A stretch of 64,000 nucleotides of DNA from Planctomycetota bacterium (GTDB taxonomy: Bacteria > Planctomycetota > MHYJ01 > JACQXL01 > JACRIJ01). Position numbers and translations under genes: made by a program. The notes beneath the pieces are model-generated. The model was not told the DNA's origin. It made no database searches and saw nothing but the letters and a program-made list of their open reading frames with translations. How positions within the stretch are numbered: the stretch's first letter is position 1; each line of letters starts with the position of its first letter. This document shows positions 12,678 to 37,541 of this stretch, piece after piece. The stretch is from the NCBI GenBank assembly GCA_016220095.1, contig JACRIJ010000111.1, positions 27,748-91,747 on the forward strand, given 5' to 3'.

Positions 12678-12730
12678 GGTCTAAGAGGCTGGAGTCTGAC
12701 GTAGCAAGTCGGGACTCCCGACTCAGGACT

Positions 12731-12775
12731 TCGTCCCGTCCTTCATGCTTCATTTTTCATTCTCCCTTCTTCGTC
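12731..12775 (+). repeat. dispersed repeat family A copy A1 (TTCGTCCCGTCCTTCATnCTTCATTTTTCATTCTTC)
   Basis: ttcgtcccgtccttcatgcttcatttttcattctcccttcttcgtctactc; lies between the convergent alr and 12775..13314 genes and supplies the stop of the latter. Confidence 0.7.
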
Positions 12776-16483: not shown

Positions 16484-16685
16484 TCCTACATCATTTAACA
16501 GCCGCGTAATTAACAGGGACTGACGACGACTCTTGCCGACAGGGACTCTGAGAGACCTTGATGAGACACGAACGAAATGGAAAATCGAGAATGGAGCACC
16601 AAAAATCCCGCAATGCGGGATTTTTGGTGAGTGTGAGTATTGAGTACTTAGTAGTTAGGCGCCAATTTTGCGCAAGCGCAAAATT

Positions 16686-17040
16686 GGTGGAGGCGGGGGG
16701 AATTGAACCCCCGTCCCGAGACACTTCAGCAGGAGCTTCTACGCTTGTAGCCGGTAATTTGCTCTCGCGCCCGGGCCCCCTTCCGGCAAGGTGCCAGTCC
16801 GCCAGCTTAACTTTGAGTTTCGCCCCTCAGGCGTTTAGCAAACCCTCAGGGCTATCCCGCAGTGATACGTCGCCATGCTCCCGCGGGAGGGGAACACGAC
16901 AACGTTACAGCTTAATTACGCTGCAAATGCATACGCATTGTCTGCGTTTATATTTTTGCCAGGTGTTTTACGGGGCCTCCTGACAACCCCGAAGCGCCGC
17001 TTTCTGCCTCAATCTGTCCGGTCGAATCCAGTTCGCCCCC
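16686..17040 (-). ncRNA. ssrA: tmRNA (ssrA), one-piece form
   Basis: Minus-strand 5' end GGGGGCGAACTGGATTCGAC and 3' end GGACGGGGGTTCAATTCCCCCCGCCTCCACCA. Acceptor stem has a G3:U70 wobble (AlaRS identity element). Tag ORF GCA GAC AAT GCG TAT GCA TTT GCA GCG TAA reads ADNAYAFAA*. Adjacent to smpB. Confidence 0.9.
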
Positions 17041-17187: not shown

Positions 17188-17232
17188 ATCCGTCGTCCCT
17201 CTGTACTCGCTACCGGCTACTCGCTACTTCGT
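17188..17232 (+). repeat. repeat family B copy B2 abutting the smpB stop
   Basis: atccgtcgtccctctgtactcgctaccggctactcgctacttcg. Confidence 0.65.
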
Positions 17233-17693
17233 TAAATGTTCTTCCCTCTCATCGCCATTCTGATATGTTTATCAGATTCTTTCTTTTTCATATCCGCGCG
17301 CTTGTCGTAGAGTTTTTTGCCTCTCGCGACGGCAAATTCAATTTTCGCAAGGCCTTTTTTGAAATACAGCGCTAAAGGCACGAGTGTCTTGCCTTCCTCG
17401 GCGGTTTTGCCAAGCAGGCGGTGTATCTCGCTCTTGTGCAGGAGCACCTTGCGCGGCCTCTTGGGTTCGTGATTGGCAAAATTGCTCGCCTGCGCATACA
17501 AAGCAATCTCCATATTGTAAATAAACACCTCTCCATTGCTTACCCTGAGATAACCTTCGGTTATGCTGGCATTGCCGTCGCGGATGGATTTCACTTCGGT
17601 TCCGCGCAAGGACAGGCCGCCTTCGTATTTTTCAAGGATTTCGTAATTGGCAAAGGCCTTTTTGTTTTTAACAACGATTTTTATGGCATCCAT
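17232..17693 (-). CDS. smpB: SsrA-binding protein SmpB
   Basis: 153 aa; conserved SmpB sequence (KKAFANYEI...GTEVKSIR...). Immediately upstream of tmRNA on the same strand. Confidence 0.9.
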   Translation of the reverse strand: MDAIKIVVKNKKAFANYEILEKYEGGLSLRGTEVKSIRDGNASITEGYLRVSNGEVFIYNMEIALYAQASNFANHEPKRPRKVLLHKSEIHRLLGKTAEEGKTLVPLALYFKKGLAKIEFAVARGKKLYDKRADMKKKESDKHIRMAMRGKNI

Positions 17694-17810: not shown

Positions 17811-17892
17811 GTACGTCCGTGACCCGTTTTCCGTGGCCCGTAACCCGTTTACACGGGAACCGGGAAACGGGCAACGGGAACCGGACAATGTC
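17811..17892. repeat. repeat family C copy C1 (GC-rich hairpin element built of CCCGTTTCCC/GGGAAACGGG motifs)
   Basis: gtgacccgttttccgtggcccgtaacccgtttacacgggaaccgggaaacgggcaacgggaaccgg; internal inverted repeats. Confidence 0.7.
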
Positions 17893-17925
17893 CTTCATTC
17901 TTCATTTTTCATACTTCATGCTTCG
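17890..17925 (+). repeat. repeat family A copy A4, fused to C1, ending at the stop codon of the truncated lipoprotein paralog
   Basis: gtccttcattcttcatttttcatacttcatgcttcg. Confidence 0.7.
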
Positions 17926-17928
17926 TAA

Positions 17929-18446
17929 TCAACGCCGGACGTCGAGTTTTTGGCCGGGGCCGCTGTCAGAAGCCGAGCGTATTATATATTGCTCCTGCGA
18001 ATTGGGGTCAAAACCTTCCTTAAAATCTGAAAACATGATAGTGTAATTGCCGTTTGCATCCGTTTTAATCGGGCCTGCCACGGGGTCCGAAAAATCGGTA
18101 TCATCAACGGTATAAACATACAAATCCGATTCAGGCACGTTGACAATCTTAAAATTATCAATTTTCTCAAACGATTTATCGTCAGGCGCGGACTGTGGTT
18201 TTGTCAGGCCGGAACTCGTATAAAATACATTGCCGCTGACGAAAGCCATATCATCGCTGTCACTGGTTTCTGCTGGTTTCGGGGCCGGGGATGATTCCGG
18301 GGCCGAAGACGAAGCCTGAGAAGAGTTGCTTTCTCTTATTGCTGTTGAAGAAGCGCCGCCTCCTCCGCCGCAGGCGGGAAGAACAGCCAATCCTGTAAGC
18401 ACTGCGGCAACTAAAACAAGGCGTGCTATTAAATTATTTTGAAACA
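17929..18446 (-). CDS. truncated paralog (5' remnant, about 172 aa) of the giant lipoprotein family: signal/lipobox plus carboxypeptidase-regulatory-like domain only
   Basis: MFQNNLIARL...LPACGGGGG lipobox; AFVSGNVFYTSSGLTKPQ...DLYVYTVDDTDFSDPVAGPIKTDANGNYTI is collinear with residues about 1-160 of the two giant genes (about 75% nt identity). GGAGG RBS 9 nt before the ATG at 18446. The ORF stops exactly at the junction with repeats A4/C1. Confidence 0.6.
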
Positions 18447-18497
18447 TGCTGAAAAAACCTCCATGATAAATGTAATTTAACAACCGCAAAGCGCGAT

Positions 18498-21400
18498 TTA
18501 TTTGGCTATAAATACGCCAAACACATCGCCGCCTATGAATTCACCGCCTGTTGACATGTCTATTGTCATTCCAGTATTAAGTATCACAAAGAACTTGCCA
18601 CCGGCATAGCCGCCCATGGTGCCAAGTTGCATGCCGGCATCCGTATTAACAGAAACTTCCGTGCCAACAAGCGTCCCGGACATGCTTACATATTGACCGT
18701 ATACATTCCAATCCGCAGTGGTGCTGAAACCGTCTACGGTCAAATCCGTCCAGACAACAAAGAAATCAGTTCCATCAGAGGCGGCTGTAGGCAGGAATTG
18801 CTCGCCAGGATCAGCGTTAATCACTATGCCGGATCCGACCAAAGAACCGTTTTTATCAACTATCTGGCCATAGACGTCCCATTCGCCTGAATTCAAGCCG
18901 CCAACCTCGTCTGTCCAGATAACAAGATATTTTGCATTGGTTGAATCATAACAAACGGAAACCTCGTTATCGCTGAGATACGTATTTGCATTAATGGATA
19001 TTTCCGCGCCAAGCGTGCCTGTCGGCGAAACAAAACGGCCTTTTATTTCATAGTCATTGGTATCGTCGCACCATACTACAAAGAAATCAGTCCCGTCAAA
19101 GGCAACGCACTTGAAACCGAAATCAGCGTAACCTGTGCTGATGGCAAATTCACTGCCTACAATGCCCGCAGTGCTGACAAGTTTTCCGTAAGCCTTGCTT
19201 TCACCGGTAGAAGAATTAACCTCTTTGAAATACACGACAAGGTAATTGCCGCCGCCGTAAGCGACATCACCCAATTCATCCGTGTTGGAGCTTATCGCCG
19301 CAATATCTATAGTCGCACCACTGAGTCCGGTGCCGTCTTTTTTAATGAACTGCCCTTTAATCGTATCAACCGGATATGTGGCATCATCCGCCCACACCAT
19401 AAGGTAATAGGCGCCGTCATACGCTACGGTAGGAACGCCGCCTGCGCCGGCTGTGAATATTCTTGTGCCGGTTAAAGCGCCGGTTGCCGATACCAATTGC
19501 GCGTTTGCGGCATTGTTGTTTGCGTCATTGCCTTCTATGGCAACAAGATAATTAGTGCCGTCAAACGCGGCACTGACAGCCATTTCCTGTGCTGACATGG
19601 TTGCGATAGCCGTTCCAGCTGGCGCCGGGCCTGGCCCCGGCCCCGGGCCTGTAACGGGGCCTGTTGAGAACGGGTCCGGCGGCATAAATGCCCATCCGCT
19701 CGTCATGCCTGTCGTAGTCAATACCCATGCAAATTCAAAATCCATGCCCACGCCGTCTTCGGTATGGAATACCCTCAACAGGTACGCCCTTTCGGTATCT
19801 GCCGGATCGGTCAGGGCATCACCGGTTCGTATAAGGTATATGGACGGCTTATCGTAGCCGCCGGTTGCCGTGAATATATCTCCTGTTATGACAGTTGTTA
19901 TTGTCATTAAAGTCCCCTTGCTCGCGTAGAAATCAATCGTAAATCCGGCGTCATAGGACGCGTAGATGTTATCGTTCTTGAAAGTTTTTTTGGCGTCCAC
20001 GGGCAGTGCCGCGTCAAGGGCTAATATATCAAGCTTGTATATTTTAAGGTTCGTGTTGCTGCCGTTCGGAACGAACACCAGTTTATTAAGCGAATTGGAC
20101 GTAACCAGCGCATCCCAACCGGAGAATTCAGCCGTCCCGGCAAATTCCGTATTTTCAATATCGTATCCGAAATTGAAATAAGTGTTGTTATCCAGCCACA
20201 CGTACGGGAAGAACATCGGTTTCCATTCGCCTACAAAGAACGGCCATTGAGGATTGGCAGGGTCAAATACCGCGCCCGGATCATATCCCCAGTGCAATAC
20301 AAAATCAATCTTGCCGTTTCCGTTGGTATCTTCCCTCTGGCCGTCGCCATTGGTATCCGTATCCTCACCGTCATGGTTCATCCACGAAGTAAACGGGTCC
20401 GCCCAGAAATACCATACGAAAGTATCGGCCGTTCCGTTACTGTCATAATCATAAGCAAACTTTACAAAATAACCCTTCCACAGCCCGTCAGGGTTGTTCA
20501 CGCTGTCAAATGTCAATGTCAACATGCCGTTGGCATCGGTTGTAACACTGCTGATAAAATTGGCGGAATCTGATGTAGAATTATGCGTTGATGCCCATGC
20601 GTCCTGACCGTTATCATAATACAGTTCCATTGATTCAGAAGCCAACGGACCTGAATCGGCTTTGAAATGCTGGGTAAGGGTCAATTGCCAGTTTGAAGGC
20701 AGTTGTTCAAATTGCTGGTTGTTTTCCGGATTCCACCAGGAATCAAACTGCAGGCTTGACAGGATAGTTTCAAGGTTTTCATTGAATGTCAGGTTTTCAT
20801 AATCGCCTGCATAGGCGCTGAACCCGTCCATAAGGCCGCTGAATATGGACTTTAACACCTGTTCGCTTGCTATGGGAGAAATTTCTTTCAGGTTTTCCCA
20901 ATATTCGCGGATTTCCTGTTTATTGTCCGGATTTTGATACATCCATCCGCCGCCGAAACTATTGGCGGCTGAAGGATCTATGACCCTCTGGCCGACAATG
21001 CGCATCACAAAAATAACGAATGCCGACCTGAAATCCAGAACCGTACTGTCGGCAAATGTCTGCCCGTAGAGTTGAGGCGACACGCCCGCGTAAATAACGC
21101 TCTTGTACCTTTCTTCCATGGAGGTCCACATCGGAGTGGAATAAATGAGTTCGCCGGCCTTGTTAAAAAAACCATCGCCGTCAATAACCGTGCCGTCCTG
21201 GCTCATATACGGACTGAAAACCGCTTCATAATATGCGTTTGTATCGGCATAGAGCCCGTCCAGTACGGCCTTATTCGCGAGAAATTCCAATGCGAAATCG
21301 GCAATATTGATGTAATTTGATATTTGTTCAAGAGACATTTCAACGAATTCGCCGCTTGTTGACGGAAGGGTTATATCAAACATCTCTGCTATTTCAGCGT

Positions 21401-22778
21401 CTGTGATAGCCGCGGAATCGAAAATATCCGTATTCGTACCCGAATCCCAGCTCCAATTCCACCGCCATTCAAATTCGGCTTTTGTAAGGACTTTCAAATC
21501 TGACAGGGTGCAGGAAAGCGTATTGTAATTATCAGCGATATATTCCACCAGCGCATACGAAAAAGTATCCATATGTTCCATAATGTCTCTGAGCCGGAAC
21601 TTCCTGTCCTTATTGAATGTATAGGTCGTAAAATCCCTGCCGAACATATCTTTATCCTGGAGTTTTACGCCGGATTCATCAACGAAACCGTCGCTATTGG
21701 CGTCCGCAAAAACATCCTTAATGTTGATGAGATATACGTTCGGATTAAAGGAAAGCTGTTTTGCCGTATCCGTAGTTATCGGCTCGGGATTGCTGATCCC
21801 GGGAAAATTTTCCGCCGTGAGTTCCATCAATGTTCCGTCCGCTTTCCTGAAAAAATCAGGCTCAATGTACGTATAACATTCTTCATTGCTGTTTTCTCTG
21901 GCAACAGTAAAACCAAGCATTGTAATGATATTAATAAGAGCAACGAGTTTCTTTTCAGCCGCAACGCCCTCTTTGAATATTTCGTCTGCCGCGGCGCCGT
22001 CAAGCATGGTGGATGCGGTAGAAATTTCCACCGATCCCGCGGCTCCGGATTTGGTCGTATCAAAAGACGATGTGTAATCGTCATAGAAATAGGATTCATC
22101 CACGGTCAGGTCGCCGGTTGCAAGCTGTGCGGTAACTTCTTTGACTATTGAGGAAACGATTTCCACAAGACTCGCCCACAGCGCCGGATTGATATCAACC
22201 AGGCCGAATTCGTTGAAGATCTCCTGTATCTTGGTAAGAATGGTCTGTACGACGATTTCAGTGACCGGGTCAACGCCTACGACAGGCGCGCCATTCGCGT
22301 CTTTATCAAGGGCGGCATCGTTCATATCAAGCAGGCGTCTGAGGCCAAGCTTCTGCCCGTTGCCCCTCGTAAAGGCCGCGCGGATTACGTATTGCTGTTG
22401 CGAATTTGGGTCAAAACCGGCCTTGAAATCGGAAAGTTTAATGGTATAACTGCCGTTTGCATCCGTCTTAATCGGACCTGCTACGGGGTCTGAAAAATCG
22501 GAATCGTCAATAGTATACACATAGACATCCGCGTCAGGTACGTTGACGAGGTCGGAATTATTGATTTTCAGGAGCGTCTTGCCGTCAGGTGTGGTTTGCG
22601 GTTTGGTCAGGCCGGAACTCGGATAAGAAACGTTGCCGCTGACGAATGCCGTGTCACTGCCGCCGGGGGGGTTAGTCGTACTGCCGCCGCCTCCTCCGCC
22701 ACAGGCAGGCAACAGAGACAATCCTGCAATTATAATTGCAAACAAGACACCCCGCGTTATTGAATTAATTTGAAACAT
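18498..22778 (-). CDS. giant surface lipoprotein paralog 1 (about 1426 aa): lipobox, Gly-rich linker, CarboxypepD_reg-like domain, large novel central region with DxDxNGDG calcium-binding-like motif, PG linker, 7 tandem approx 50-aa beta-propeller-like repeats
   Basis: Start refined to ATG 22778 (MFQINS; GGAGG RBS; the track start 22793 is an in-frame upstream ATG within the RBS). LLPACGGGGGG; DTDTNGDGQREDTNGNGKIDF; GPVTGPGPGPGPAPAG. C-terminal repeats follow the pattern [AF]DGxx[YF][LF]VVWxD...VYGQxV...G...G. Confidence 0.75.
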   Translation of the reverse strand: MFQINSITRGVLFAIIIAGLSLLPACGGGGGGSTTNPPGGSDTAFVSGNVSYPSSGLTKPQTTPDGKTLLKINNSDLVNVPDADVYVYTIDDSDFSDPVAGPIKTDANGSYTIKLSDFKAGFDPNSQQQYVIRAAFTRGNGQKLGLRRLLDMNDAALDKDANGAPVVGVDPVTEIVVQTILTKIQEIFNEFGLVDINPALWASLVEIVSSIVKEVTAQLATGDLTVDESYFYDDYTSSFDTTKSGAAGSVEISTASTMLDGAAADEIFKEGVAAEKKLVALINIITMLGFTVARENSNEECYTYIEPDFFRKADGTLMELTAENFPGISNPEPITTDTAKQLSFNPNVYLINIKDVFADANSDGFVDESGVKLQDKDMFGRDFTTYTFNKDRKFRLRDIMEHMDTFSYALVEYIADNYNTLSCTLSDLKVLTKAEFEWRWNWSWDSGTNTDIFDSAAITDAEIAEMFDITLPSTSGEFVEMSLEQISNYINIADFALEFLANKAVLDGLYADTNAYYEAVFSPYMSQDGTVIDGDGFFNKAGELIYSTPMWTSMEERYKSVIYAGVSPQLYGQTFADSTVLDFRSAFVIFVMRIVGQRVIDPSAANSFGGGWMYQNPDNKQEIREYWENLKEISPIASEQVLKSIFSGLMDGFSAYAGDYENLTFNENLETILSSLQFDSWWNPENNQQFEQLPSNWQLTLTQHFKADSGPLASESMELYYDNGQDAWASTHNSTSDSANFISSVTTDANGMLTLTFDSVNNPDGLWKGYFVKFAYDYDSNGTADTFVWYFWADPFTSWMNHDGEDTDTNGDGQREDTNGNGKIDFVLHWGYDPGAVFDPANPQWPFFVGEWKPMFFPYVWLDNNTYFNFGYDIENTEFAGTAEFSGWDALVTSNSLNKLVFVPNGSNTNLKIYKLDILALDAALPVDAKKTFKNDNIYASYDAGFTIDFYASKGTLMTITTVITGDIFTATGGYDKPSIYLIRTGDALTDPADTERAYLLRVFHTEDGVGMDFEFAWVLTTTGMTSGWAFMPPDPFSTGPVTGPGPGPGPAPAGTAIATMSAQEMAVSAAFDGTNYLVAIEGNDANNNAANAQLVSATGALTGTRIFTAGAGGVPTVAYDGAYYLMVWADDATYPVDTIKGQFIKKDGTGLSGATIDIAAISSNTDELGDVAYGGGNYLVVYFKEVNSSTGESKAYGKLVSTAGIVGSEFAISTGYADFGFKCVAFDGTDFFVVWCDDTNDYEIKGRFVSPTGTLGAEISINANTYLSDNEVSVCYDSTNAKYLVIWTDEVGGLNSGEWDVYGQIVDKNGSLVGSGIVINADPGEQFLPTAASDGTDFFVVWTDLTVDGFSTTADWNVYGQYVSMSGTLVGTEVSVNTDAGMQLGTMGGYAGGKFFVILNTGMTIDMSTGGEFIGGDVFGVFIAK

Positions 22779-22890
22779 ACCAGAAACCTCCATAAGTATA
22801 TTTTTTCTGAATTTGCATTATACCCAAAAAAACAGAATATGTCAAATTTTTCGCACGAATTAAGAGGTGTATTTGTTATTCCTTTCCTCA

Positions 22891-23068: not shown

Positions 23069-26000
23069 CTATGGCGCCGTAAAGTAAATCAGCCTGGACA
23101 GCTGTGTGCCGTAAATCGTCCTGTAGTATATGCCCACCCTGTATTTTTGTCCGGACACCAGGGTGGCTCCGGTCGGATTGACGGACATCGCCGTATACGG
23201 GTCAAGGTCATAAGCGCCCCATAGCGTATTGCCCTGGAAAACCCAGGACGAATCCAGCTGGTCAAACATAACGTACACTGTTTCAAACATCAAATTCGGA
23301 TTGTTGACGTTTTGAGGCGTGCCCGGCAGGATAATGCTGGGGTTCCAGGAAATCTGCGTCAGGTTATTTGACATGTCAACCTGCAGATTGGTTCCGGTAT
23401 TTGTCGGGCTTGTTCCGTCATGTATGGGGAACGCGGGCACTTCGTTTATCTTTACGGTTTTCTCCACTATTGTGTTATCCGTCAGTGTGAATTTCACCTT
23501 AAAATTGGCTCCTAACACAGGAGGCGTGGTGCCTTTATCAACAAAAATTCCCCACGGCTGGCCCGCCGTGCCGGCGTTCAGGGTTGCTACCAGATTGTTC
23601 GCAAGATTAAACACTTCAACCTTGCTGACCGTAGACGGGTCATAGGCCTCGCCGGAGAAGAACAATCCGTATGTCTGGCTGATGGTGCTTCCGCCGTTAT
23701 TGTTTGACGCGAACATTACGGTTTCAACCTTACCGGAATAAAACATTGTAGAAGGCGCCGTCTGGGTCGCGAGTTTGCCGTCGTTATTCACGTCATAAGC
23801 GGCCAATTCCAAGGTCGTTGCCAAAAATCCCTTCCATTCAATGCTTCTGACTTCGCCGATGCCGGGGGCATACCACGTTTCCATCGTATCTGTCTGTAAA
23901 TTTGCGTCCGTTATTGACAACGTAATATGCAGACAACCGGCAAAATGCCCTGCCGGAACGTCAACGTCTTCAGTGCCGTAAACCGTTACCTCAAAGGATA
24001 ATGTCTCCGCGTCATTTTGCAGAAGCGTTGTGCCTGAATTGTCGTAAATATCCATATTCGTAGTTCCTGAGACCGTATCAAACACATTAGACGACGCAGG
24101 CAATAGCGTAATCGGCGTATCAAATATCTGAAGTCCGCCGCCATCGGCAAATCCGTATAGCATGAGGGCGCCCGTGGCGGAATCATAACCGTAATAGTCA
24201 CTGAACTCATAATTGGCGGAATCGGCATTGCCTGTATATTTTTCGGTCGTGTAACCGATGCCGTTAGGCAGGGTTACGGCGGAATTCAATACCTTTTCCG
24301 TTCTGAATTCTTCGGATACTACCTTGTTCTTCAAATCGCCGAAGAAATAGAATTCGCCGTATTCGCGGTCAATATATGTCCGCGTGCCGGAGAACGTACT
24401 GCCGGACGGGTAATACGTTGAAGCAAGGTATCCGCCCGAAGGAGGAGGAACATAGCCGCCCGGGCCGCCGGTGCCGCCGCCCGCGGGTTCAAACGGATTC
24501 GGCGGTATATTGGTCCAGTTATTTGTCTCCGTGCCGTTTACTGCCGTAAATATAGTCGCGAATTCAAAATCAAATCCCATATCATCCGCCTTGAATACGC
24601 GGAGCAGGTACGCCCTTTCGGTATTGAACATGGGCGAATCGCCAGTGCGTATCAGATATATGGACGGGGACATATATTCGCCGGTGTTGGAGAACGTATC
24701 GCCTTCTATGGCCAGATTGGAAGCGTCAGTTCCTTTGCTTGCGTAGAAATCAATGGTAAATCCGGCGTCAAACGCAGCGTATATGTTGTTTCCGGTAAAC
24801 GTCTGTTTCGGATTTGTACCAAGCGCGGCATCCAAATCGGCGGCATTAAGCTTATAAACCGTCACGCCGTTCGTATTATTGGGCACCATAACCAGTTTAT
24901 TCTGAGAATTTGCCATCACAAGAATATCATAGTTGTTATTATACTGGGTCACGTCCGTATTCATGAACGGGGTACCTTCAATATCGTAACCGAAATTGAC
25001 GTAGTTATTCACCGGCACCCAGGCATACGGGAACATCATAGGCTTCCATTCGCCCACATAGAACGGCCACTGCGGATTGGCCGGGTCAAACGGCTTATCC
25101 TTGTCAAATCCCCAATGGCTGATGTAATCAATATAACCGTTGCCGTCAACGTCATCCCTGACGCCGTCGCCGTTGTTGTCATAATCTTCGCCGTCGTGAT
25201 TCACCCAGTCATTGTACATGTCGGCCCAGAAGTACCATACGAACGTTTCATCCGTTCCGTTCGCGCCGACATCAAAGGTAAACTTCACAAAGTATCCCTT
25301 GAAGAAATCAAGAAGCGGGCCTTTCGCATTGTCAAATTCAAGCGTAAGCATGCCGTTTTCGTCTGTGGTAACCGATGAAATGAAATTCGCCACATCGCTG
25401 GTGGAATTATGCGTGCTCGCCCACGCGTCCTGCCCCATGTCATAATAGAGTTCCATGCTGTAAGACGCAAGCGGTCCGACGTCTGATTTAAAGTTCTGGG
25501 TTAAGGTGAGCTTTGTATTGTCAGGCAGTTGTTCAAAATTATTATGCTCCATGTCCTTATTCCACCAAGTATCAAACTGCATGCTTTCCAACAGCGTCTG
25601 CGTATTCGTATCAAACGCAAGGTTTTCATAATCGCCGGTATATGAGGCGCCGAATATGTCAGGGAATAGCTGAACCAGTATTTCCTTGATAACGGTCGTA
25701 TCGTCTGTCGGAGACGGCCACATGAAGTTCTGATTGTTGGGCTCAATGTTTTTATCGGGCATATCAGTTCTCTGATACAATAACCCGCCCGCAAAACCGT
25801 CTAACGGGTCAATCACGTGTATTCCGGTAAGACGCAGAACTATCAGCACAAACGCGGACCTGAAATCAAGCGCCGTATCGTCGGTAAATGTCTGCCCGTA
25901 TAACTGCTGTGAAATGCCGGAGTAAACCGTGCCTTTTATTTTTTCCTCTTCAGAATTCCACATCGGCGTGGTCTTGACTATCTCTTTGGCCTTTTCAAAG

Positions 26001-27652
26001 AACCCGTCGCCGTCAACAATGGTTCCATTGGAATCAAAGAACTGTTTGAAATTGTCCTGGAAGAAGGCATCTTTATTCGCATACAGTCCGTCCAATACGG
26101 CTTTATTGGCCGCGTATTCTATGGCAAAACCGGTAAATTCAAAATAACGGGAATCCTGGCTTAGAATTTCTTCTACATAATCCACCGCAGTAGGCGGAAG
26201 GGTTATGGCGAAAAGTTCGTCCACGTCTCCGGCCGCGAACGGAATTGTCGGGCCGTCCACCCACATGTTCTGAGCCTCGTCAAAATATCCGTCCTGGCGC
26301 CACTGGAAACTGCCTGCAATGGTCTGCTTTACGGTGGCAATATCAGTGCTGAGAAAGATATAATTAGCGGCCGTAAACGCTATCATTTCGTACATCAGGG
26401 CGCCCATGTCTTTAAAGTTTTCGCGAAGCCGGAATTTCTTGTCGGCGTTAAACGTGTATGCGGTAACGTCCCTGCCGAAGAAATCCTTTCCCTGCACTTT
26501 AACTCCGGAGTCGTCAACAAATCCATCCTGGTTCGTATCCGTAAAAATATCATTCGGGGCCAGGACGTATATATTGGGATTGAACGGAAGCTGTTTGTCA
26601 ACGTCCGTTGTTATGGGTTCAGGTATGCTCATGCCCGGGAAATTCTCCGCGGTCACTTCCATCAGGGTGCCGTCCGGTTTCCTGAAAAAATCCGGTTCAA
26701 CGTACGCGTAGCATTTTTCGTTGCTGTTTTCCAGCGTCACCGTAAAACCGAGCATGCAGAGAACGTTAATGAGGGAAACGATTTTCTTTTCGTCAGGAAC
26801 GCCCTCTTTGAATATCTCGTCAGCCGCGGCGCCGTCAAGGAGCATGGACGCCGTGGATACCTCAACGGTATCAGACGCGCCGGACTTGGTCGTATCCATG
26901 GAACTGGTATAATCATCGTAGAAATAGCTTTCATCCACGGTCAGATCGCTGTTTTCAAGCTGTGCCGTCAATTCCTGCACAATAGAAGTAACGATATTCA
27001 CGAGACTCTGCCACAACGCGGGATCTATGCTTACAATGCCGAATTCGTTGAAGATTTCCTGGATTTTAGTAAGAATCGTCTGAACGACTATCTCGGTAAT
27101 CGGGTCAACACTTATTACCGGATTGCCGTCGGCGTCCTTCGTAATTGATGCGTCGTTCAGGTCCATGAAACACCTTAACCCTATCTTCTGGCCGCCTGCA
27201 TTGTTAAATGACGCGCGGAGAACGTATGATGTCTGCGAAGCAGAGTCAAAACCCGCGATAAAATCGGATTCGTCTACCGTGTAATTGCCGTTCGCGTCGG
27301 TTGTAATCGGACCTGCGACCGGATTAGAGAAATCCGTATCGTCAATGGTGTACAAATATACCTCGGCGCCGGCTACCGCAACAAGGTCTGAATTATTGAT
27401 CTTGAGCAGATTCTTGCCGCCTGCCGGATTCTGGGGCTTGGTTAAACCGGTGCTGGGATATGAGACGTTGCCTGAAACAAAGGCAACATCCGTACCGCCG
27501 CCGGTAGTGCCGCCACCCGTGGTGCCGCCGCCGGTCGTGCCGCCGTCAGTTGAACTGCCGCCACCACCGCCGCCACAGCCGAATAACAGCGCTATGCTCG
27601 TAAGCACCGTTATGAAGACAAGTAATCTTACATTGGATTTTTGGTAAAACAT
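23069..27652 (-). CDS. giant surface lipoprotein paralog 2 (about 1527 aa): same N-terminal approx 1000-aa module as paralog 1 but a different C-terminal approx 500-aa head
   Basis: Start refined to ATG 27652 (MFYQKSN; AAGGAG RBS; the track start is an upstream TTG). LLFGCGGGGGGSS followed by (GGTT)x3 from a 12-nt tandem repeat. Collinear with paralog 1 through ...ERAYLLRVF..., then unrelated sequence after the G/P linker (AGGGTGGPGGYVPPPSGGY). Confidence 0.75.
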   Translation of the reverse strand: MFYQKSNVRLLVFITVLTSIALLFGCGGGGGGSSTDGGTTGGGTTGGGTTGGGTDVAFVSGNVSYPSTGLTKPQNPAGGKNLLKINNSDLVAVAGAEVYLYTIDDTDFSNPVAGPITTDANGNYTVDESDFIAGFDSASQTSYVLRASFNNAGGQKIGLRCFMDLNDASITKDADGNPVISVDPITEIVVQTILTKIQEIFNEFGIVSIDPALWQSLVNIVTSIVQELTAQLENSDLTVDESYFYDDYTSSMDTTKSGASDTVEVSTASMLLDGAAADEIFKEGVPDEKKIVSLINVLCMLGFTVTLENSNEKCYAYVEPDFFRKPDGTLMEVTAENFPGMSIPEPITTDVDKQLPFNPNIYVLAPNDIFTDTNQDGFVDDSGVKVQGKDFFGRDVTAYTFNADKKFRLRENFKDMGALMYEMIAFTAANYIFLSTDIATVKQTIAGSFQWRQDGYFDEAQNMWVDGPTIPFAAGDVDELFAITLPPTAVDYVEEILSQDSRYFEFTGFAIEYAANKAVLDGLYANKDAFFQDNFKQFFDSNGTIVDGDGFFEKAKEIVKTTPMWNSEEEKIKGTVYSGISQQLYGQTFTDDTALDFRSAFVLIVLRLTGIHVIDPLDGFAGGLLYQRTDMPDKNIEPNNQNFMWPSPTDDTTVIKEILVQLFPDIFGASYTGDYENLAFDTNTQTLLESMQFDTWWNKDMEHNNFEQLPDNTKLTLTQNFKSDVGPLASYSMELYYDMGQDAWASTHNSTSDVANFISSVTTDENGMLTLEFDNAKGPLLDFFKGYFVKFTFDVGANGTDETFVWYFWADMYNDWVNHDGEDYDNNGDGVRDDVDGNGYIDYISHWGFDKDKPFDPANPQWPFYVGEWKPMMFPYAWVPVNNYVNFGYDIEGTPFMNTDVTQYNNNYDILVMANSQNKLVMVPNNTNGVTVYKLNAADLDAALGTNPKQTFTGNNIYAAFDAGFTIDFYASKGTDASNLAIEGDTFSNTGEYMSPSIYLIRTGDSPMFNTERAYLLRVFKADDMGFDFEFATIFTAVNGTETNNWTNIPPNPFEPAGGGTGGPGGYVPPPSGGYLASTYYPSGSTFSGTRTYIDREYGEFYFFGDLKNKVVSEEFRTEKVLNSAVTLPNGIGYTTEKYTGNADSANYEFSDYYGYDSATGALMLYGFADGGGLQIFDTPITLLPASSNVFDTVSGTTNMDIYDNSGTTLLQNDAETLSFEVTVYGTEDVDVPAGHFAGCLHITLSITDANLQTDTMETWYAPGIGEVRSIEWKGFLATTLELAAYDVNNDGKLATQTAPSTMFYSGKVETVMFASNNNGGSTISQTYGLFFSGEAYDPSTVSKVEVFNLANNLVATLNAGTAGQPWGIFVDKGTTPPVLGANFKVKFTLTDNTIVEKTVKINEVPAFPIHDGTSPTNTGTNLQVDMSNNLTQISWNPSIILPGTPQNVNNPNLMFETVYVMFDQLDSSWVFQGNTLWGAYDLDPYTAMSVNPTGATLVSGQKYRVGIYYRTIYGTQLSRLIYFTAP

Positions 27653-27762
27653 AAACAAACTCCTTATTTGAATTGACTGTTTTATTTTTTGTTATATGCC
27701 TAATTATACCCTGAAAAACGCTAAAAGTCAAATGAAACGGAAAAAAATTGGACTTCGGACGG

Positions 27763-27803: not shown

Positions 27804-27830
27804 TATTCATTTTTCATTCTTCTTCCTTGA
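27804..27830 (+). repeat. repeat family A copy A5 (overlaps the 3' end of the GGDEF gene)
   Basis: tattcatttttcattcttcttccttg. Confidence 0.6.
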
Positions 27831-28775
27831 TACGGCGGCGGCTATTTGGTTCTTGCCCTTCTTCTTGGCGCGGTACATAGCCTTATCCGCGGCATCAAAG
27901 AGCTCCTGCGCATTTCCGGCATCGTCCGAATACGTTGCCACGCCTATGGAAGCCGTTATTACTACATGCAATTCGTGGTCTTCCTTGAGAAACCTTTTAT
28001 GGTCAATCTCTTCTCTTATGCGGTCCGCCACCACTATGGCCATTTCCTTGGGCGAATCCGGCAGAAGTATGGCAAATTCGTCCCCGCCGTAACGGGCAAC
28101 GATATCCTGGTCCCGCAAGTTGTTTTTTATCGTAAATGCCACCTGCCTCAGTATAACGTCCCCAAACAGGTGTCCGAAATTGTCGTTGTAGTTCTTGAAA
28201 TTATCAACGTCCAGCATGAGAATAGACAGTTTTTTGCCGTCCCTGCCGGCCTGCGCGACCATTTCCTTCAATTTGTCCTGAAAAAACCTGTGGTTATACA
28301 CGCCCGTAAGGCTGTCTATATTGACGAATACGGTTATGCGGTCCATGGCGTCTTCGCTCAAAAGCCGTACGTTCTGGATAAGTTTCAGATGATTGCTCAG
28401 GTAGTCCAGCGCCGCTACGCGTACGCCGACGTTGCGCCCGAGTTTTTCGCTCAGGAAATATTTATGCTTGATTATCCCGCGCCAGATCTCCCTGGCCTTG
28501 ACCGTATCAAAACGCTGATAAGTAATGGTAAACAGCAGATCCGAAAAAAAATCCTCGCCGCCGGCGAGATTCTGGAGTTTTTTCTCAAAATCCTCCGCTG
28601 ATAAACCTTCGGCCTGCGCGTCGCCCGCAAGAATATCTATGATATTGATGCCGTTGTCTTCGTGTTCCTGGATCATTTTAACAATGTCAAGGTCCTCGGC
28701 AACGGCAAGGTCCGGCTGGAAAACGCTTGGCCCCGAAGGCCGGGGATCTCTTTTTTCTAAAAATTCTTTTGACAT
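27807..28775 (-). CDS. diguanylate cyclase (GGDEF) with uncharacterised N-terminal domain
   Basis: 322 aa; RYGGDEFAILL active site; LTGVYNHRFF. Confidence 0.8.
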   Translation of the reverse strand: MSKEFLEKRDPRPSGPSVFQPDLAVAEDLDIVKMIQEHEDNGINIIDILAGDAQAEGLSAEDFEKKLQNLAGGEDFFSDLLFTITYQRFDTVKAREIWRGIIKHKYFLSEKLGRNVGVRVAALDYLSNHLKLIQNVRLLSEDAMDRITVFVNIDSLTGVYNHRFFQDKLKEMVAQAGRDGKKLSILMLDVDNFKNYNDNFGHLFGDVILRQVAFTIKNNLRDQDIVARYGGDEFAILLPDSPKEMAIVVADRIREEIDHKRFLKEDHELHVVITASIGVATYSDDAGNAQELFDAADKAMYRAKKKGKNQIAAAVSRKKNEK

Positions 28776-28827
28776 ATTTGTATAAGAATATTCTTTTACT
28801 TAAAAAAAGTCAACAGGAAATTCATAC

Positions 28828-28849
28828 GAAGGATGAAGAAGGAAGGACG
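28828..28849 (-). repeat. repeat family A copy A6 (short, reverse)
   Basis: gaaggatgaagaaggaaggacg; adjacent to C2. Confidence 0.5.
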
Positions 28850-28945
28850 TTTTCCGGTTCCCGTTGCCCATTTCCCGGTTCCCGTTTAAACGGGCCATGT
28901 ACCGGTACTGATGCATGGCGGGCCACGGGAAACGGATCACGGCTC
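28846..28945. repeat. repeat family C copy C2 (reverse complement of C1 with a 26-bp palindromic insertion)
   Basis: ggacgttttccggttcccgttgcccatttcccggttcccgtttaaacggg...ggccacgggaaacggatcacgg; insertion ccatgtaccggtactgatgcatggcg. Confidence 0.7.
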
Positions 28946-29062
28946 CTGCCTTCCATATACCATAGTACTTTCATATATTATATAGACGTTGTTATTTCGC
29001 ATTTTATTGACTTTTTAGGGGGTTTTTGTTACGATTCTTATGGACTTATAGGAGTTATTTGA

Positions 29063-29941
29063 ATGCAAAAATTTTATTTCCTTGATAAATACGCCAAAAC
29101 TCTGCTGATTGTTTGCGTGGCTGTTGCGATAATCGCAGGATTGTTCCTGTTTTCGCCGTACGGCGCGGCCCAGCAAACCGCTACTTACGTAGGAAGCGGC
29201 GACTGCGAGATGTGCCATGAAGACCTGCGCACAAAAATAAAAGACACCTCGCATGAGGCAATCTTTGACAAGGATTTGTTCCCTGAAGAAGATAAGCACG
29301 GATGCGAGGCCTGCCACGGCCCGGGTTCCAACCATGTCCAGGGCCAGGGCGAAGACAACAAGGCGCTTAAAAAAGACATTCACAGCCCGGTCAAGGTAAA
29401 TGCCGCGCTTACTACGGAAAAGTGCGTCAAATGCCATGAAATCCAGCCTGCGAAATGGCAGAACAAAGGCCATTTCACCGATAAAACCGGCTGTATCTCC
29501 TGCCATAAAATCCACATAAAAGACCCGAAAAAGGATTTCATGATACCGCAGGACAGCAAGCTCTGCGCGACCTGCCACCAGAAACAAATTACGGCATTTA
29601 ATAAGAGCAAACACAGTAAAGAGATGACCAAAAACATTGAATGCTTTAACTGCCATAATCCGCACGTGCCCCTGGAAGAACAGAAAATCACGGCTTGCGT
29701 AAAATGCCATGCCGACAAAAAAGGGCCTTTCCTCCACCCGCACGGAGCTGTTGAAAAAAGAGGATGCGGCGGATGCCATAATCCGCATGTGCTTGAAGTT
29801 AAAAAAGAAGACCTGCCGGTCAAGGACCTTATCCCGAACCTCTGTACGAATTGCCATAAAACGCCGCATTTTCCCAAGGGTTGTATAATGTGCCATCAGA
29901 AGCCGCATGGCTCCAATGTGGATGAATTTTTATTAAGGTAA
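29063..29941 (+). CDS. membrane-anchored decaheme c-type cytochrome
   Basis: 292 aa; N-terminal TM anchor; 10 CxxCH motifs (CEMCH, CEACH, CVKCH, CISCH, CATCH, CFNCH, CVKCH, CGGCH, CTNCH, CIMCH). Confidence 0.85.
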   Translation: MQKFYFLDKYAKTLLIVCVAVAIIAGLFLFSPYGAAQQTATYVGSGDCEMCHEDLRTKIKDTSHEAIFDKDLFPEEDKHGCEACHGPGSNHVQGQGEDNKALKKDIHSPVKVNAALTTEKCVKCHEIQPAKWQNKGHFTDKTGCISCHKIHIKDPKKDFMIPQDSKLCATCHQKQITAFNKSKHSKEMTKNIECFNCHNPHVPLEEQKITACVKCHADKKGPFLHPHGAVEKRGCGGCHNPHVLEVKKEDLPVKDLIPNLCTNCHKTPHFPKGCIMCHQKPHGSNVDEFLLR

Positions 29942-29948
29942 GTTTTGT

Positions 29949-31244
29949 ATGTGCATAAAAAAAATACGTAACGGTTTGATTCTAACCGTGTCTGTCGGTC
30001 TGCTCGCTTTTCTGGCTTCAAGCATCTTTTCGGATGAATCCGACCAGCCGAAATATATCGGCAGTGACGATTGCGAGATGTGCCATGATACCATGAAGAC
30101 GGATATCGCCAAAGGCGTGCATGCGTTTATATTTGACAGCAAGGATACGCCGGAAATATACGGGTGCGAGGCCTGCCACGGCCCCGGCGAAAAACACGTG
30201 CAAGGCCAGGGTGAAGACAACGCAGACCTTAAAAAAATAATGATCAATCCCGCCAAGGCAACCGCGGACGTCAGTTCCGCCCAGTGCATGAAATGCCATA
30301 AGGATTTTTTTGACGAACAGGATTGGCTTAACGGCAGGCATATTAAGAATAATATCGGGTGCCCGAAATGCCATAAGATACATGCCTATGACCCCAAAAA
30401 GGACCCCATCAAGGAAGGATATAAGTTCTGCCTCAAAGAATGCCATGACGCGCAGGAAAAGGAATTCGCTAATTCCAAGGCGAAATTCGGGCATAAGATT
30501 CCCAAGGTCGCGAACTGCCTGAGCTGCCACTCCCCGCATTCCAGAATCAACCTGAATACCTCGCGGGAGGCCTGCGTAAAATGCCACGCGGATAAAAAAG
30601 GCCCGTTCAAGTTCAATCACGGCAACGGCCGCATACAGGAATGCACGGTATGCCATTATCCGCACGTCATGGACGAACCTAAAATGCTGAAAAGGAAGGT
30701 GTCGCTTGACCTGATGTACGAAGAGCCGAAGATGGACGACAAAAAGAAAAAGGACCAGGAAAAAAAGGACAAAGATAAACATAAAGAAGGCGAACTTTCC
30801 GAAAGGGACGTAATTACATTCTGCCTGCAATGCCATACACAACACAAGACGGACAATTGCCTCGGATGCCACCAACAGCCCCTGCACGTAGAGCCTCCGA
30901 AACAGGGCATGTGCCAGAGATGCCACGCGGGACACGGTTTTGCAGGATGCCCGACCTGCCACGGCAACCCGCATCCGAACGGCGTTACGCCGCGGGATTG
31001 CAGTAAATGCCACCAGCCGCATACCACGAAAAGCTGTCTGGATTGCCATCCTTTCATGCACGGGTCAAACGATTCAAGGCGATTCTTTGAGCCGACAGTA
31101 TCAATAAAAATTCCGGGCGACGACCTGACGCCGAAACCGCAGTTAGTCAGCAAGAGAAAACAACCGACAGGCGGCACCGGAGGCGCAGGAAGCGGTTCCG
31201 ATAGCAACAAGCCAGAAGGGCCGGGAACGTCAAGCGGCAAATGA
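29949..31244 (+). CDS. 14-heme c-type cytochrome (13 CxxCH plus one CxxxCH), paralogous to the upstream decaheme over the N-terminal approx 200 aa
   Basis: 431 aa; signal peptide; shared CEMCH...CEACHGPG..HVQGQGEDN block; CLKECH variant site; K/D-rich linker (KKKKDQEKKDKDKHKEG) before a C-terminal 6-heme module; G/S-rich tail. Confidence 0.85.
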   Translation: MCIKKIRNGLILTVSVGLLAFLASSIFSDESDQPKYIGSDDCEMCHDTMKTDIAKGVHAFIFDSKDTPEIYGCEACHGPGEKHVQGQGEDNADLKKIMINPAKATADVSSAQCMKCHKDFFDEQDWLNGRHIKNNIGCPKCHKIHAYDPKKDPIKEGYKFCLKECHDAQEKEFANSKAKFGHKIPKVANCLSCHSPHSRINLNTSREACVKCHADKKGPFKFNHGNGRIQECTVCHYPHVMDEPKMLKRKVSLDLMYEEPKMDDKKKKDQEKKDKDKHKEGELSERDVITFCLQCHTQHKTDNCLGCHQQPLHVEPPKQGMCQRCHAGHGFAGCPTCHGNPHPNGVTPRDCSKCHQPHTTKSCLDCHPFMHGSNDSRRFFEPTVSIKIPGDDLTPKPQLVSKRKQPTGGTGGAGSGSDSNKPEGPGTSSGK

Positions 31245-32666: not shown

Positions 32667-32705
32667 CATTTTCGTCCCGTCCTTCATTCTTCCTTCTTCA
32701 TACTC
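32667..32705 (+). repeat. repeat family A copy A7, overlapping the last codons and stop of the MFS gene
   Basis: cattttcgtcccgtccttcattcttccttcttcatactc; its reverse complement encodes ...SMKKEE*. Confidence 0.7.
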
Positions 32706-33928
32706 TCTTTCACGAACGTCATCATTATAACCGCCGTTACCGTTAATGCAAGGGAAACCGCGAATGGAACTGCCACGTTGTATTTGTCCCACAGCCTGCC
32801 TGCCATGAACGACGCCGGCAACGCGCATAATCCCACGCACATCTGGTAAAATCCCAGGCCGCTCGCCCTGTATTCCGCCGGCACCACTTCGGATACGAAT
32901 GCCTTCTGCACCGGGTCCAGCGCACCTTTATGCAGGCCATACAATATGAAAACAATCACTACCGTCCAAAACCCGGCTCCGTTCACCGACAGATCGCCGT
33001 TCTTCGGCCTGAAAAATACCATAACGACGCATAACAAAATCCAGAACAGGAACCCTATCTGCAAAACCGTTTTCCGGCCTATCTTGTCAGCCAGCTTCCC
33101 GAACGGAAACGACGCTATTGACGCCATGGCCGTAAACGCCAGATAAAGCAGGATTATCGATTCGGTCGCAAACCCGGCCTCCTTCGCATACATCAGCAGG
33201 AACGAATAGCTGAACGCACCGAGCGAGAAAAAAACGCTCAGTGCAAGAAAGAATTTGAAATTCGCGTCAAGATGCCTGTATCTCAAGCCTTTAAAAACTT
33301 TTGTTTCCGACGGCCTATCCTCCCTGACAAACGCCAGTATCATTACCACGCCTATAACGGACGGTATCGCGGCTATCCAGAACAGGTGTTGAAACCCTAT
33401 CTTCGTGCCTACGCCGAAATACTTCACCATTAACAGGCAAATTATAATTCCGCATACGGCGCCGAGATTATCCATCGCGCGAAGGAAACCGAAATTCCTT
33501 CCGCGGTTTTCCTGTGTTGAAACGTCAGCTATCATCGCGTCGCGCGGGGCCCCGCGCATCTTGCCCGCACGGTCAAGGATGCGGAACGGTATCAGATACT
33601 GCCATACCGCGGCAACCGCGTAGCCGACTCGCGATAAGGCGGCAAACATGTATCCAAGCCAGATGAAAAATTTGCGCTTCCTTATGCGGTCGGAAATATA
33701 TCCGGATACGGCCTGGGAAACCGACACTATCGCATCTCCAAGACCGTCAAGAAACCCGAGCCACGTCATGTCAGCGCCGAGACTCTTTACGAAAAGCGGC
33801 CAGATGGGATAAATCATGTCCGAGCCCATGTCGTTCAAGAACGACGCCAGGCCGAAGGTTCTTACGGTACGTTTGGAGTTGTTTCCGGAATTGCCCATAT
33901 TAGATGGCGGTGTTATTGATTCATTCAT
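32684..33928 (-). CDS. MFS transporter
   Basis: 414 aa; 12 predicted TM segments; MFS motif GxLaDRxGrkxxl-like (GKLADKIGRKTVL). Confidence 0.8.
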   Translation of the reverse strand: MNESITPPSNMGNSGNNSKRTVRTFGLASFLNDMGSDMIYPIWPLFVKSLGADMTWLGFLDGLGDAIVSVSQAVSGYISDRIRKRKFFIWLGYMFAALSRVGYAVAAVWQYLIPFRILDRAGKMRGAPRDAMIADVSTQENRGRNFGFLRAMDNLGAVCGIIICLLMVKYFGVGTKIGFQHLFWIAAIPSVIGVVMILAFVREDRPSETKVFKGLRYRHLDANFKFFLALSVFFSLGAFSYSFLLMYAKEAGFATESIILLYLAFTAMASIASFPFGKLADKIGRKTVLQIGFLFWILLCVVMVFFRPKNGDLSVNGAGFWTVVIVFILYGLHKGALDPVQKAFVSEVVPAEYRASGLGFYQMCVGLCALPASFMAGRLWDKYNVAVPFAVSLALTVTAVIMMTFVKESMKKEE

Positions 33929-37195: not shown

Positions 37196-37345
37196 CCAAG
37201 ATTAAAGATTACAAGATTGGAAGATTACGCACTTCCAAAGATTCTAAGATTACAAGATTGAGAAGATTACAAGATTACGAAGATTCTAAGATTCGGAAGA
37301 TTACGAAATTCCAACTAATCTTCCCAATCTTCGTAATCTTTTAAT
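37196..37345. repeat. tandem array E1: about 13 direct AAGATTNC(G) octamer/nonamer units followed by about 5 inverted AATCTTNN units (hairpin-forming)
   Basis: aagattaaagattacaagattggaagattacg...gaagattacgaaattccaactaatcttcccaatcttcgtaatcttttaatcttcctaatcttgcaatc. Confidence 0.75.
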
Positions 37346-37541
37346 CTTCCTAATCTTGCAATCATATTATTATATAAAAAGTTATGATTTGGTCAAAGGA
37401 AATGCATTTATAACACGTAACCCGTCAGTGACCGGGCAAACACGGAAAATTAACTCTTGCTTTTGGATTTGTTTTTTACTATAATGCCCGGCCTGCGTAA
37501 TAAAGCAGTACGGCATAGCCGCAACCTATAACGCGAAAATG

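Follow-up and report, generated by a model that had tools for sequence, protein, structure and literature searches.

Two adjoining multiheme cytochrome genes

In a groundwater Planctomycetota metagenome-assembled genome (MAG), two adjoining genes on the same strand, here named cytA and cytB, encode proteins of 292 and 431 aa (A and B) with ten and fourteen c-type heme motifs, respectively. They lie in a stretch of 64 kb, hereafter the window, which was analysed as a whole and belongs to a contig of 113.5 kb; the inspection extended to about 80 kb surrounding the locus. Both open reading frames (ORFs) are complete and are separated by 7 nt from the stop of cytA to the start of cytB. Exact sequence matching identified them as MBI5361145.1 (HZA48_11260) and MBI5361146.1 (HZA48_11265), both annotated as hypothetical proteins by NCBI. 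Translated in six frames, the window contains 26 CxxCH motifs, 23 of them in these two ORFs and only three elsewhere, so that their clustering is far from chance. An earlier note on this DNA (the original prediction) had described two adjoining cytochromes of 10 and 14 hemes with about one heme per 30 aa, and a scripted motif count agrees, giving one motif per 29 aa in A and one per 31 aa in B (Table 1).

The motifs of A lie at residues 48, 81, 121, 144, 168, 194, 212, 235, 261 and 274. Apart from one Cys in each signal peptide, all Cys residues of both proteins belong to heme motifs; in B this single Cys is residue 2, which is replaced by Tyr in the relative from an independent Logan assembly (L002, SRR22388139) carrying the same gene pair at 89% nucleotide identity. 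The sequencing runs SRR12113407 and SRR22388139 both contain the locus. Outside the motifs, 13 His residues are available for the 10 hemes of A and 15 for the 14 hemes of B, so that bis-His ligation of all hemes is feasible in both. Each protein has a single N-terminal hydrophobic segment (Kyte–Doolittle maxima of 2.78 at residues 13–31 in A and 2.19 at residues 9–27 in B), a plausible AxA-type cleavage site (GAA↓Q and ASS↓I) and no lipobox. The N-terminus of A, originally described as a membrane anchor, reads as an ordinary Sec signal consisting of a hydrophobic core and the site SPYGAA↓QQ (assigned by eye from the −3/−1 rule), and is more probably a cleaved signal peptide.

A Shine–Dalgarno-like TAGGAG is located 8 nt before the ATG of cytA and an AAGG 10 nt upstream of cytB. 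The approximately 80 nt preceding the cytA start, in which the promoter-like site of Table 1 is found, are near-identical in L002, compared with 89% identity for the coding DNA. Given the 7-nt gap with its Shine–Dalgarno-like site and the conserved promoter stretch, A and B are very probably co-transcribed and co-translated.

Table 1. Coordinates of cytA, cytB, their parts and the elements preceding them
Feature	Position in window	Strand	Description
cytA	29063–29941	+	decaheme c-type cytochrome, MtrA/DmsE superfamily; 10 CxxCH
Export signal of A	29063–29173	+	residues 1–37: basic n-region, 18–19-residue hydrophobic core, SPYGAA↓QQ
cytB	29949–31244	+	14-heme paralogue of A; 13 CxxCH and CLKECH
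Export signal of B	29949–30020	+	residues 1–24: KKIR, hydrophobic core, ASS↓IF; no lipobox
CLKECH	30429–30446	+	Cx3CH variant of heme motif 5; residue 161 of B, fifth site
Charged insertion of B	30669–30812	+	between hemes 8 and 9; residues 241–288, K/D/E-rich
Six-heme C-terminal stretch of B	30813–31076	+	three tandem di-heme units, CxxCH-x2-H-x4-CxxCH-x3-H
C-terminal tail of B	31077–31241	+	55 residues, low-complexity, G/S/T/P/K-rich; predicted disordered, with a pLDDT (predicted local-distance difference test) of 35–39
Promoter-like site	29007–29035	+	putative; TTGACT-17-TACGAT with TG extension, from consensus scan; 28 nt upstream of cytA start
Diguanylate cyclase gene	27807–28775	-	PF00990 (E 3.7e-51), TIGR00254; GGDEF and RxxD motifs intact; divergent from cytA
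Palindromic element resembling repetitive extragenic palindromic (REP) sequences or miniature inverted-repeat transposable elements (MITEs)	28825–28945		hairpin −59.7 kcal/mol, z −3.85; in spacer between GGDEF gene and cytA

Membership in the MtrA/DmsE superfamily

Both proteins matched TIGR03508 over nearly its whole length (A: E 7.6e-41, 140.3 bits, positions 1–257 of 258; B: E 2.2e-40, 138.8 bits, positions 1–250 of 258), with scores below the curated cut-off of 192.2 bits. Scores for NF041028 (GSU2203 family) were 138.1 bits for A and 129.7 bits for B, against a cut-off of 325. The sole meaningful sequence match in the PDB was 6r2q_A (E 5e-22 for A and 3.5e-23 for B), which is the MtrA chain of MtrCAB from Shewanella baltica; the file carries a wrong molecule name, and the assignment was made from the Foldseek description and PMC7198977. 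AlphaFold2 (AF2) models, built from alignments of 121–122 sequences and without hemes, had a pLDDT of 75.7 for A and 67 for B, reaching 80–94 in the N-terminal half of B and falling below 55 in its C-terminal third. When these were searched against the PDB with Foldseek, the same MtrA chain was the only significant match for both. Agreement was moderate, the models being without hemes; it covered 286 columns for A (E 2.7e-9, template modelling (TM) scores 0.54/0.58) and 225 columns for B, the C-terminal third of which is unmodelled (E 2.5e-6, target-normalised TM score 0.51). In the alignments of 121–122 homologues, little or no variation is seen in the ten motif columns and in those of the distal His, and motifs 1–10 of B align with the family, its four extra motifs falling between 9 and 10. 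Of the 120 best-matching homologues of B, exactly ten motifs occur in 102, and 17, 18, 22 or 26 in a few; the 13 + 1 pattern is confined to B's own cluster.

As in MtrA, MtoA, PioA and DmsE (TIGR03508; 6R2Q_A), the ten motifs follow one order, and their spacing is near-identical as far as heme 8. A and B also share with these proteins the CEACHGPG, ADKKGPF and HGSN signatures, a distal His per heme, a density of about one heme per 30 aa and an N-terminal export signal. They differ in having at most 35% identity to any member, in the loss of the heme 9–10 loop, in occurring as two tandem copies and in lacking an adjoining mtrB/pioB gene; B differs further in its 14 hemes, Cx3CH site, 37-aa charged insertion and 55-aa tail. 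By profile, alignment and predicted structure, A and B are clearly divergent members of the MtrA/DmsE/MtoA superfamily with a common fold and heme scaffold. They stand outside the DmsE/MtrA family proper on two counts, namely the curated score and the adjoining barrel. The electron conduit originally proposed is thus retained as a resemblance to a heme-wire family, MtrA/DmsE being the best, and the only significant, match by profile, PDB sequence and fold.

Other multiheme families fitted less well. NapC/NirT/CymA/NrfH proteins, tetraheme quinol dehydrogenases anchored by their N-terminus, differ in heme number and spacing, and neither protein matched PF03264, the TIGR03153 score being 22.6 bits against 134. 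For the OmcA/MtrC type (TIGR03507), outer-surface decaheme lipoproteins with four domains in a staggered cross, the score was 16.2 bits against 209, no lipobox Cys follows the hydrophobic core, and the lengths of 292 and 431 aa compare with about 650–700. NrfB (PF22678) gave a borderline partial match in residues 73–154 of B (27.5 bits against 27) and none in A. This last match bears on the idea that the pair supplies electrons to an enzyme, as an NrfB-like donor to nitrite reductase, as a partner of an octaheme enzyme of the hydroxylamine oxidoreductase (HAO) or octaheme nitrite reductase (ONR) type, or as a DmsE feeding a dimethyl sulfoxide-type reductase. Weak fold matches point in the same direction, to Escherichia coli NrfB for A (2ozy, E 0.18) and to NrfH for B (E 0.4), and modules are common to multiheme families (bioRxiv 10.1101/2025.05.29.656830). 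However, NrfB, NrfH and octaheme reductases all appeared in the Foldseek results only at E > 0.1, the full-length collinear match is to MtrA/DmsE and not to the pentaheme NrfB, and neither CxxCK nor any other catalytic-heme signature occurs in A or B. The gene context in particular disfavours such a role, since the window contains no NrfA, HAO, ONR, molybdopterin or other catalytic gene. We regard it as very improbable; the original prediction had named orthology to an enzyme subunit (NrfB or HAO-associated, for example) as the outcome that would overturn its proposal, and no such orthology was found.

Duplication and purifying selection

In a search of 5.8 billion protein clusters, each protein first retrieved its own near-identical cluster (91–94% identity), then the other paralogue (37–42%) and then decahemes at 35% or less, and a neighbor-joining tree of 70 sequences placed A, B and their orthologues in one clade in 100 of 100 bootstraps. 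A and B are true paralogues, as originally proposed, and since they are each other's nearest relatives, comparison of the sequences identifies them as a lineage-specific tandem duplication. The pair has been found so far in one Planctomycetota lineage. The GTDB representatives searched for close relatives yielded one unrelated 38% fragment match, and searches of the literature turned up nothing specific on GSU2203 or on porin-less MtrA homologues in Planctomycetes.

Purifying selection acts strongly on all parts of both proteins. In the comparison of the window with L002, dN/dS was 0.075 for A and 0.044 for B, and within B it was 0.080 in the core, 0.021 in the charged insertion, 0.018 in the six-heme stretch and 0.008 in the tail. 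All heme-motif residues and conserved distal His residues are unchanged, the only His substitution being H225F in A, beside the invariant H227. These data bear directly on the alternative that cytA and cytB are the decaying, nonfunctional remnant of an mtrAB cluster that has lost its porin, for which the missing partner gene and the scores below the family cut-off might be cited. Against it, both ORFs are intact with every heme motif and conserved distal His kept, the promoter and ribosome-binding stretch is conserved, and dN/dS relative to the 89%-identical relative (0.04–0.08) is lowest in the novel parts of B. The low dN/dS disfavours decay strongly, and we consider this explanation the least credible of those weighed here.

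Growth of the heme chain in B

Alignments show A and B to be collinear through eight heme sites; the collinear order originally described holds, and the count of about seven does not. Beyond this point the two proteins diverge. In A, the heme 9–10 loop is deleted, leaving 13 residues between the motifs compared with about 35 in MtrA. In B, the K/D-rich linker of the original prediction corresponds to a 37-residue K/D/E-rich insertion between hemes 8 and 9 (a 50-residue window contains 13 K, 8 D and 7 E), which is missing from A and from all other aligned homologues and is partly helical in the AF2 model, with a helix predicted at residues 264–279.

The part of B that follows had been taken for a separate six-heme module, and instead reads as three tandem copies of the di-heme unit present once in A. 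The motif spacing is 12/18/12/17/12, the single unit of A having a spacing of 13, and the three units align to each other with z scores of 4.7–7.9 relative to shuffled sequences. The last unit carries the heme-10 HGSN signature of the family and is homologous to hemes 9–10 of A. As judged from these alignments, the terminal di-heme unit was triplicated in B, which gave it four more hemes, located between hemes 9 and 10.

The six-heme stretch was also considered as a possible known domain and rejected as such: used as a query against 1.84 billion representatives, it retrieved six proteins, namely B's own cluster and five giant repeat multihemes. The giant proteins (PF09699; for example P0153 and P0154) contain a di-heme unit, CxxCH-x2-H-x3-4-CxxCH-xPH, that resembles the triplicated unit of B. 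They are otherwise different, being 640–1470 aa long with dozens of hemes and no MtrA core, and the resemblance does not go beyond the short repeat (E 1e-6 to 1e-15 over many repeated stretches).

A Cx3CH motif at heme 5

The fifth motif of B, CLKECH, stands opposite CATCH of A in the alignment and falls in the motif-5 column that is invariant among 122 family members, from which it differs by a one-residue insertion. The original prediction had pointed out this variant, and it is unchanged in P0001/L002; since two assemblies of 89% nucleotide identity agree on it and the gene is subject to strong purifying selection, it represents neither a sequencing error nor decay. The distal His expected for heme 5 (H182) is present at the aligned position, so ordinary His/His ligation is expected here, and B has no spare Cys. 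Attachment of heme to CLKECH without a dedicated lyase is plausible by analogy, since the Ccm system of E. coli matures sites engineered to CX3CH or CX4CH, the latter being natural in cytochromes c3.

Widened motifs also turn up sporadically elsewhere among the homologues, as CIEQCH at heme 1 in P0100 and as Cx4CH at heme 10 in P0020 and P0080. Soares et al. (bioRxiv 10.1101/2025.05.29.656830) described heme motifs gained and lost within the family, as well as a branch of MtrA that has a distal Cys and, at heme 1, Cx3CH, and the variant of P0100 occupies the same heme position as in that branch. B resembles the branch in having one heme motif widened by one residue within an otherwise MtrA-like decaheme. 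It differs in that the variant lies at heme 5 rather than heme 1, that no distal Cys is present and that the branch has an MtrB homologue in its operon, whereas the locus of A and B has none. Heme 5 would be a second, independent position at which the MtrA family tolerates Cx3CH.

A missing adjoining porin gene

In MtrA, ten bis-His hemes form a chain of about 80 × 30 × 35 Å in which the gaps do not exceed 8 Å; heme 1 reaches some 20 Å out into the periplasm, where it receives electrons from soluble cytochromes, and hydrogen bonds clamp the C-terminal half within MtrB, a barrel of 26 strands whose outer aperture of about 15 Å keeps MtrA from escaping (Edwards et al. 2020, PMC7198977). Loci homologous to cytA/cytB reflect this partnership. 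Six were looked up singly (Thermotomaculum P0007, P0004 and P0005, the 22-heme P0003 and the 18-heme P0029 and P0057), and all six have a protein of 626–890 aa directly 3′ of the MtrA-like gene, matching MtrB_PioB (PF11854) in two cases and ending in an aromatic outer membrane protein (OMP) signature in several. Among another 80 metagenome loci, the sequence downstream was long enough for a judgement in 42, and all 42 have a heme-free frame of 600–920 aa directly 3′, one of them apparently frameshifted. Typical C-termini of the downstream frames are ..RYAF, ..RYSF and ..TYLW. A second multiheme gene occupies this position in none of the 42 loci; at the locus studied here, cytB sits there.

As a side observation, the downstream proteins of a 22-heme and an 18-heme locus (L008 3392–6064 and L010 10085–12448) combine a multiheme N-terminus (8 and 3 CxxCH, respectively) with a heme-free C-terminus. 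The heme-free part of L008 matches PF11854; that of L010 does not, and is tied to the L008 protein by phmmer (E 4e-12) and by its aromatic C-terminus.

No MtrB/PioB-type gene adjoins cytA and cytB, where cytB is followed by a convergent gene for a PsbP-like lipoprotein, compared with a large downstream ORF in 48 of 48 homologous loci. The missing adjoining porin gene is thus exceptional for the MtrA-like family. PF11854 had no match among the large window ORFs tested, and when the six porins from homologous loci were compared with the 293 frames that are 80 aa or longer in the window, in L002 and in two extension contigs, only cytochrome-domain matches to A and B appeared. The contigs extending the window ends are short Logan contigs with A2M/PBP1C/Dus and IspH/HEAT genes, and no MtrB-type ORF was present. 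A NapC/CymA-type or other quinol dehydrogenase was likewise found neither in the operon nor among the large window ORFs, so that the absence of both partners from the immediate operon, already stated in the original prediction, extends to every large ORF of the window. That prediction had also mentioned porin-like OMPs elsewhere in the window. Two such ORFs with aromatic C-termini do exist far from the pair, at 39711–40748 and 45486–46682; as partners they were rejected, matching neither MtrB/PioB nor the porins of homologous loci.

The second of these OMPs, 14 kb away, belongs to a cluster at 44228–46682 with an ArsR/SmtB regulator and a NapH/MauN-like polyferredoxin (TIGR02163, 74 bits against 213). 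It is 398 aa long, ends in ..TARF and is unrelated in sequence to MtrB/PioB; the cluster may be a small redox or transport module.

The partner could nevertheless be encoded at a distance. A, B or both would then thread an MtrB/PioB-like barrel and pass electrons through the outer membrane, in the reduction of Fe(III), Mn(IV) or humic substances or in the oxidation of Fe(II), and the four extra hemes and tail of B might project outside the barrel and do an MtrC-like job at the surface. Such transfer is the job of every characterised member and matches the layout of all 48 homologous loci (PMC7198977). Extended MtrA-like proteins of 17–26 hemes exist, and the three of their loci that were looked up still adjoin porin-like ORFs; moreover, the inspected region is only part of the 113.5-kb MAG contig. 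Weighing against a barrel in trans, no MtrB/PioB-like ORF was found in the 64 kb and its extensions, and the linkage that would be broken here is otherwise invariant (0 of 48 exceptions). In addition, A lacks the heme 9–10 loop, and B has two extra di-heme units at that place and the 37-aa insertion, all in the barrel-contacting half. We hold this possibility to be a serious but somewhat doubtful one. A periplasmic role independent of any porin is slightly more likely than an unlinked MtrB-type barrel, because the adjoining porin gene is missing, unlike in every relative checked, and because the insertions of B sit in the C-terminal half, which in MtrA is gripped by MtrB.

A proposed periplasmic electron relay

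With roughly even chances in our estimation, A and B form a co-expressed, Sec-exported pair of bis-His heme proteins that serves as a periplasmic electron relay. After the tandem duplication, A would have kept ten hemes and B would have been lengthened to fourteen by triplication of its terminal di-heme unit, gaining also the Cx3CH at motif 5, the 37-residue charged insertion and the disordered tail, all of which are conserved. Following export and heme attachment in the periplasm, each protein would become a near-linear chain of tightly packed hemes along which electrons hop; when scaled from MtrA, the chain would measure about 80 Å in A and about 110 Å (~40% longer) in B. The two would most likely act together, relaying and storing electrons between a presumed quinol dehydrogenase of the inner membrane and a partner, at the outer membrane or outside it, that accepts or donates them. 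The analysis shows the sequence anatomy, the family ties, the duplication, the purifying selection and the lack of a linked porin; what we infer in this scheme is that the hemes are loaded, where the proteins reside, which partners they have and which way the electrons run.

Several observations weigh against this proposal. Given the scores below the curated cut-offs, only resemblance at the superfamily level carries function over from MtrA. For B, the AF2 model is poor (pLDDT <55) precisely in the novel C-terminal part, where its geometry is not usable. The neighbouring genes (GGDEF, PsbP-like lipoprotein, transporter, purL) suggest no respiratory substrate, and with about 80 kb of a MAG inspected around the locus, a porin or quinol dehydrogenase could be encoded elsewhere in the genome.

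A more specific arrangement, which we consider unlikely, is an end-to-end docking of A with B that yields a heterodimeric wire of 24 hemes, about 190 Å long, which crosses the periplasm unaided and without the insulating sheath of MtrB. Length, docking or tethering would then be what the triplicated di-heme unit, the charged helix and the conserved tail of B are adapted to. The periplasm of Planctomycetota is often enlarged. Long multihemes that span the periplasm, as in the relay proposed above, have a parallel in those of PCC3 systems, elongated chains with few aa per heme that have been proposed to bridge the periplasm wholly or in large part and to store charge (PMC5566968; PMC10734462). 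A and B are like these in their very low aa-to-heme ratio and long heme chain, and jointly they would give 24 hemes. PCC3, however, is a single polypeptide, is not MtrA-like and is encoded beside a porin and an extracellular cytochrome.

The MtrA-type conduit is a known element; new are the porin-unlinked tandem pair, the 14-heme copy that arose by di-heme triplication and the Cx3CH at heme 5. MtrA-type cytochromes are the reference for outer-membrane electron transfer and are sought in metagenomes as obligate partners of MtrB barrels. If the pair truly works without a linked barrel, the heme-wire module would be usable in another setting; if the porin is encoded elsewhere, the finding shrinks to an odd gene arrangement and a 14-heme variant of MtrA. 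B may further provide a natural example of a wire growing two hemes per step by tandem duplication, which would be useful for the engineering of bio-electronic wires, and the pair adds electron-conduit candidates to non-anammox groundwater Planctomycetota.

Neighbouring genes and other features of the window

The pair is transcribed divergently from the diguanylate cyclase gene, as the original prediction had it; the PF00990 match on the minus strand bears this out, and the spacer to cytA is 287 bp. The GGDEF gene is treated as context only. A regulatory RNA joining it to the cytochromes was considered and rejected: at the Rfam gathering threshold, the whole window yielded only a transfer-messenger RNA (tmRNA), and a permissive Rfam scan of 28650–29150 gave nothing credible for a cyclic di-GMP or other riboswitch in the spacer. 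On the other side, cytB is followed by the convergent gene for a PsbP/DcrB-like lipoprotein and then by a major facilitator superfamily transporter gene and purL.

The palindrome in the spacer has a second, inverted copy at 17844–17913 (70 nt, 89% complementary), and the copies lie about 170–240 nt upstream of cytA and smpB in the same relative orientation. The 115-nt spacer palindrome was rejected as a component of the cytochrome unit, being a dispersed REP-like element that is missing 5′ of cytA in L002, and probably does not belong to it. The tmRNA gene (RF00023, 169 bits), the sole Rfam family at the gathering threshold, lies beside smpB (16685–17040 and 17232–17693, both minus strand). 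Another dispersed short intergenic repeat (CGTCCTTCATTCTTCATTTTTCATT and its complement) occurs at no fewer than eight sites (at least 8), including 12730–12784, 17882–17936, 32671–32711, 39018–39058 and 43744–43798, and simple 'AAGATTAC' tandem motifs are found around 37200–37370.

Directly upstream of the GGDEF gene, the minus strand encodes two giant paralogous lipoproteins (1431 and 1529 aa) and a 186-aa copy of the N-terminal fragment (17929–18489, 18498–22793 and 23069–27658). They carry the lipobox LPACGGGGG, belong to no Pfam or NCBIfam family and differ in their C-terminal thirds. A 1340-aa fusion of CheB, CheR, histidine kinase and receiver is encoded at 3961–7983, and within it a 21-nt periodic repeat (6037–6216) encodes a heptad-like 'NEEL' coiled-coil stretch. 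Finally, two Fic/DOC-family genes and an AbiEii-type toxin gene with an upstream unannotated partner of 211 aa (46791–47543, 50579–51712 and 57945–59434) are interspersed with genes for aromatic amino-acid biosynthesis, and may constitute a small defence or toxin–antitoxin island.

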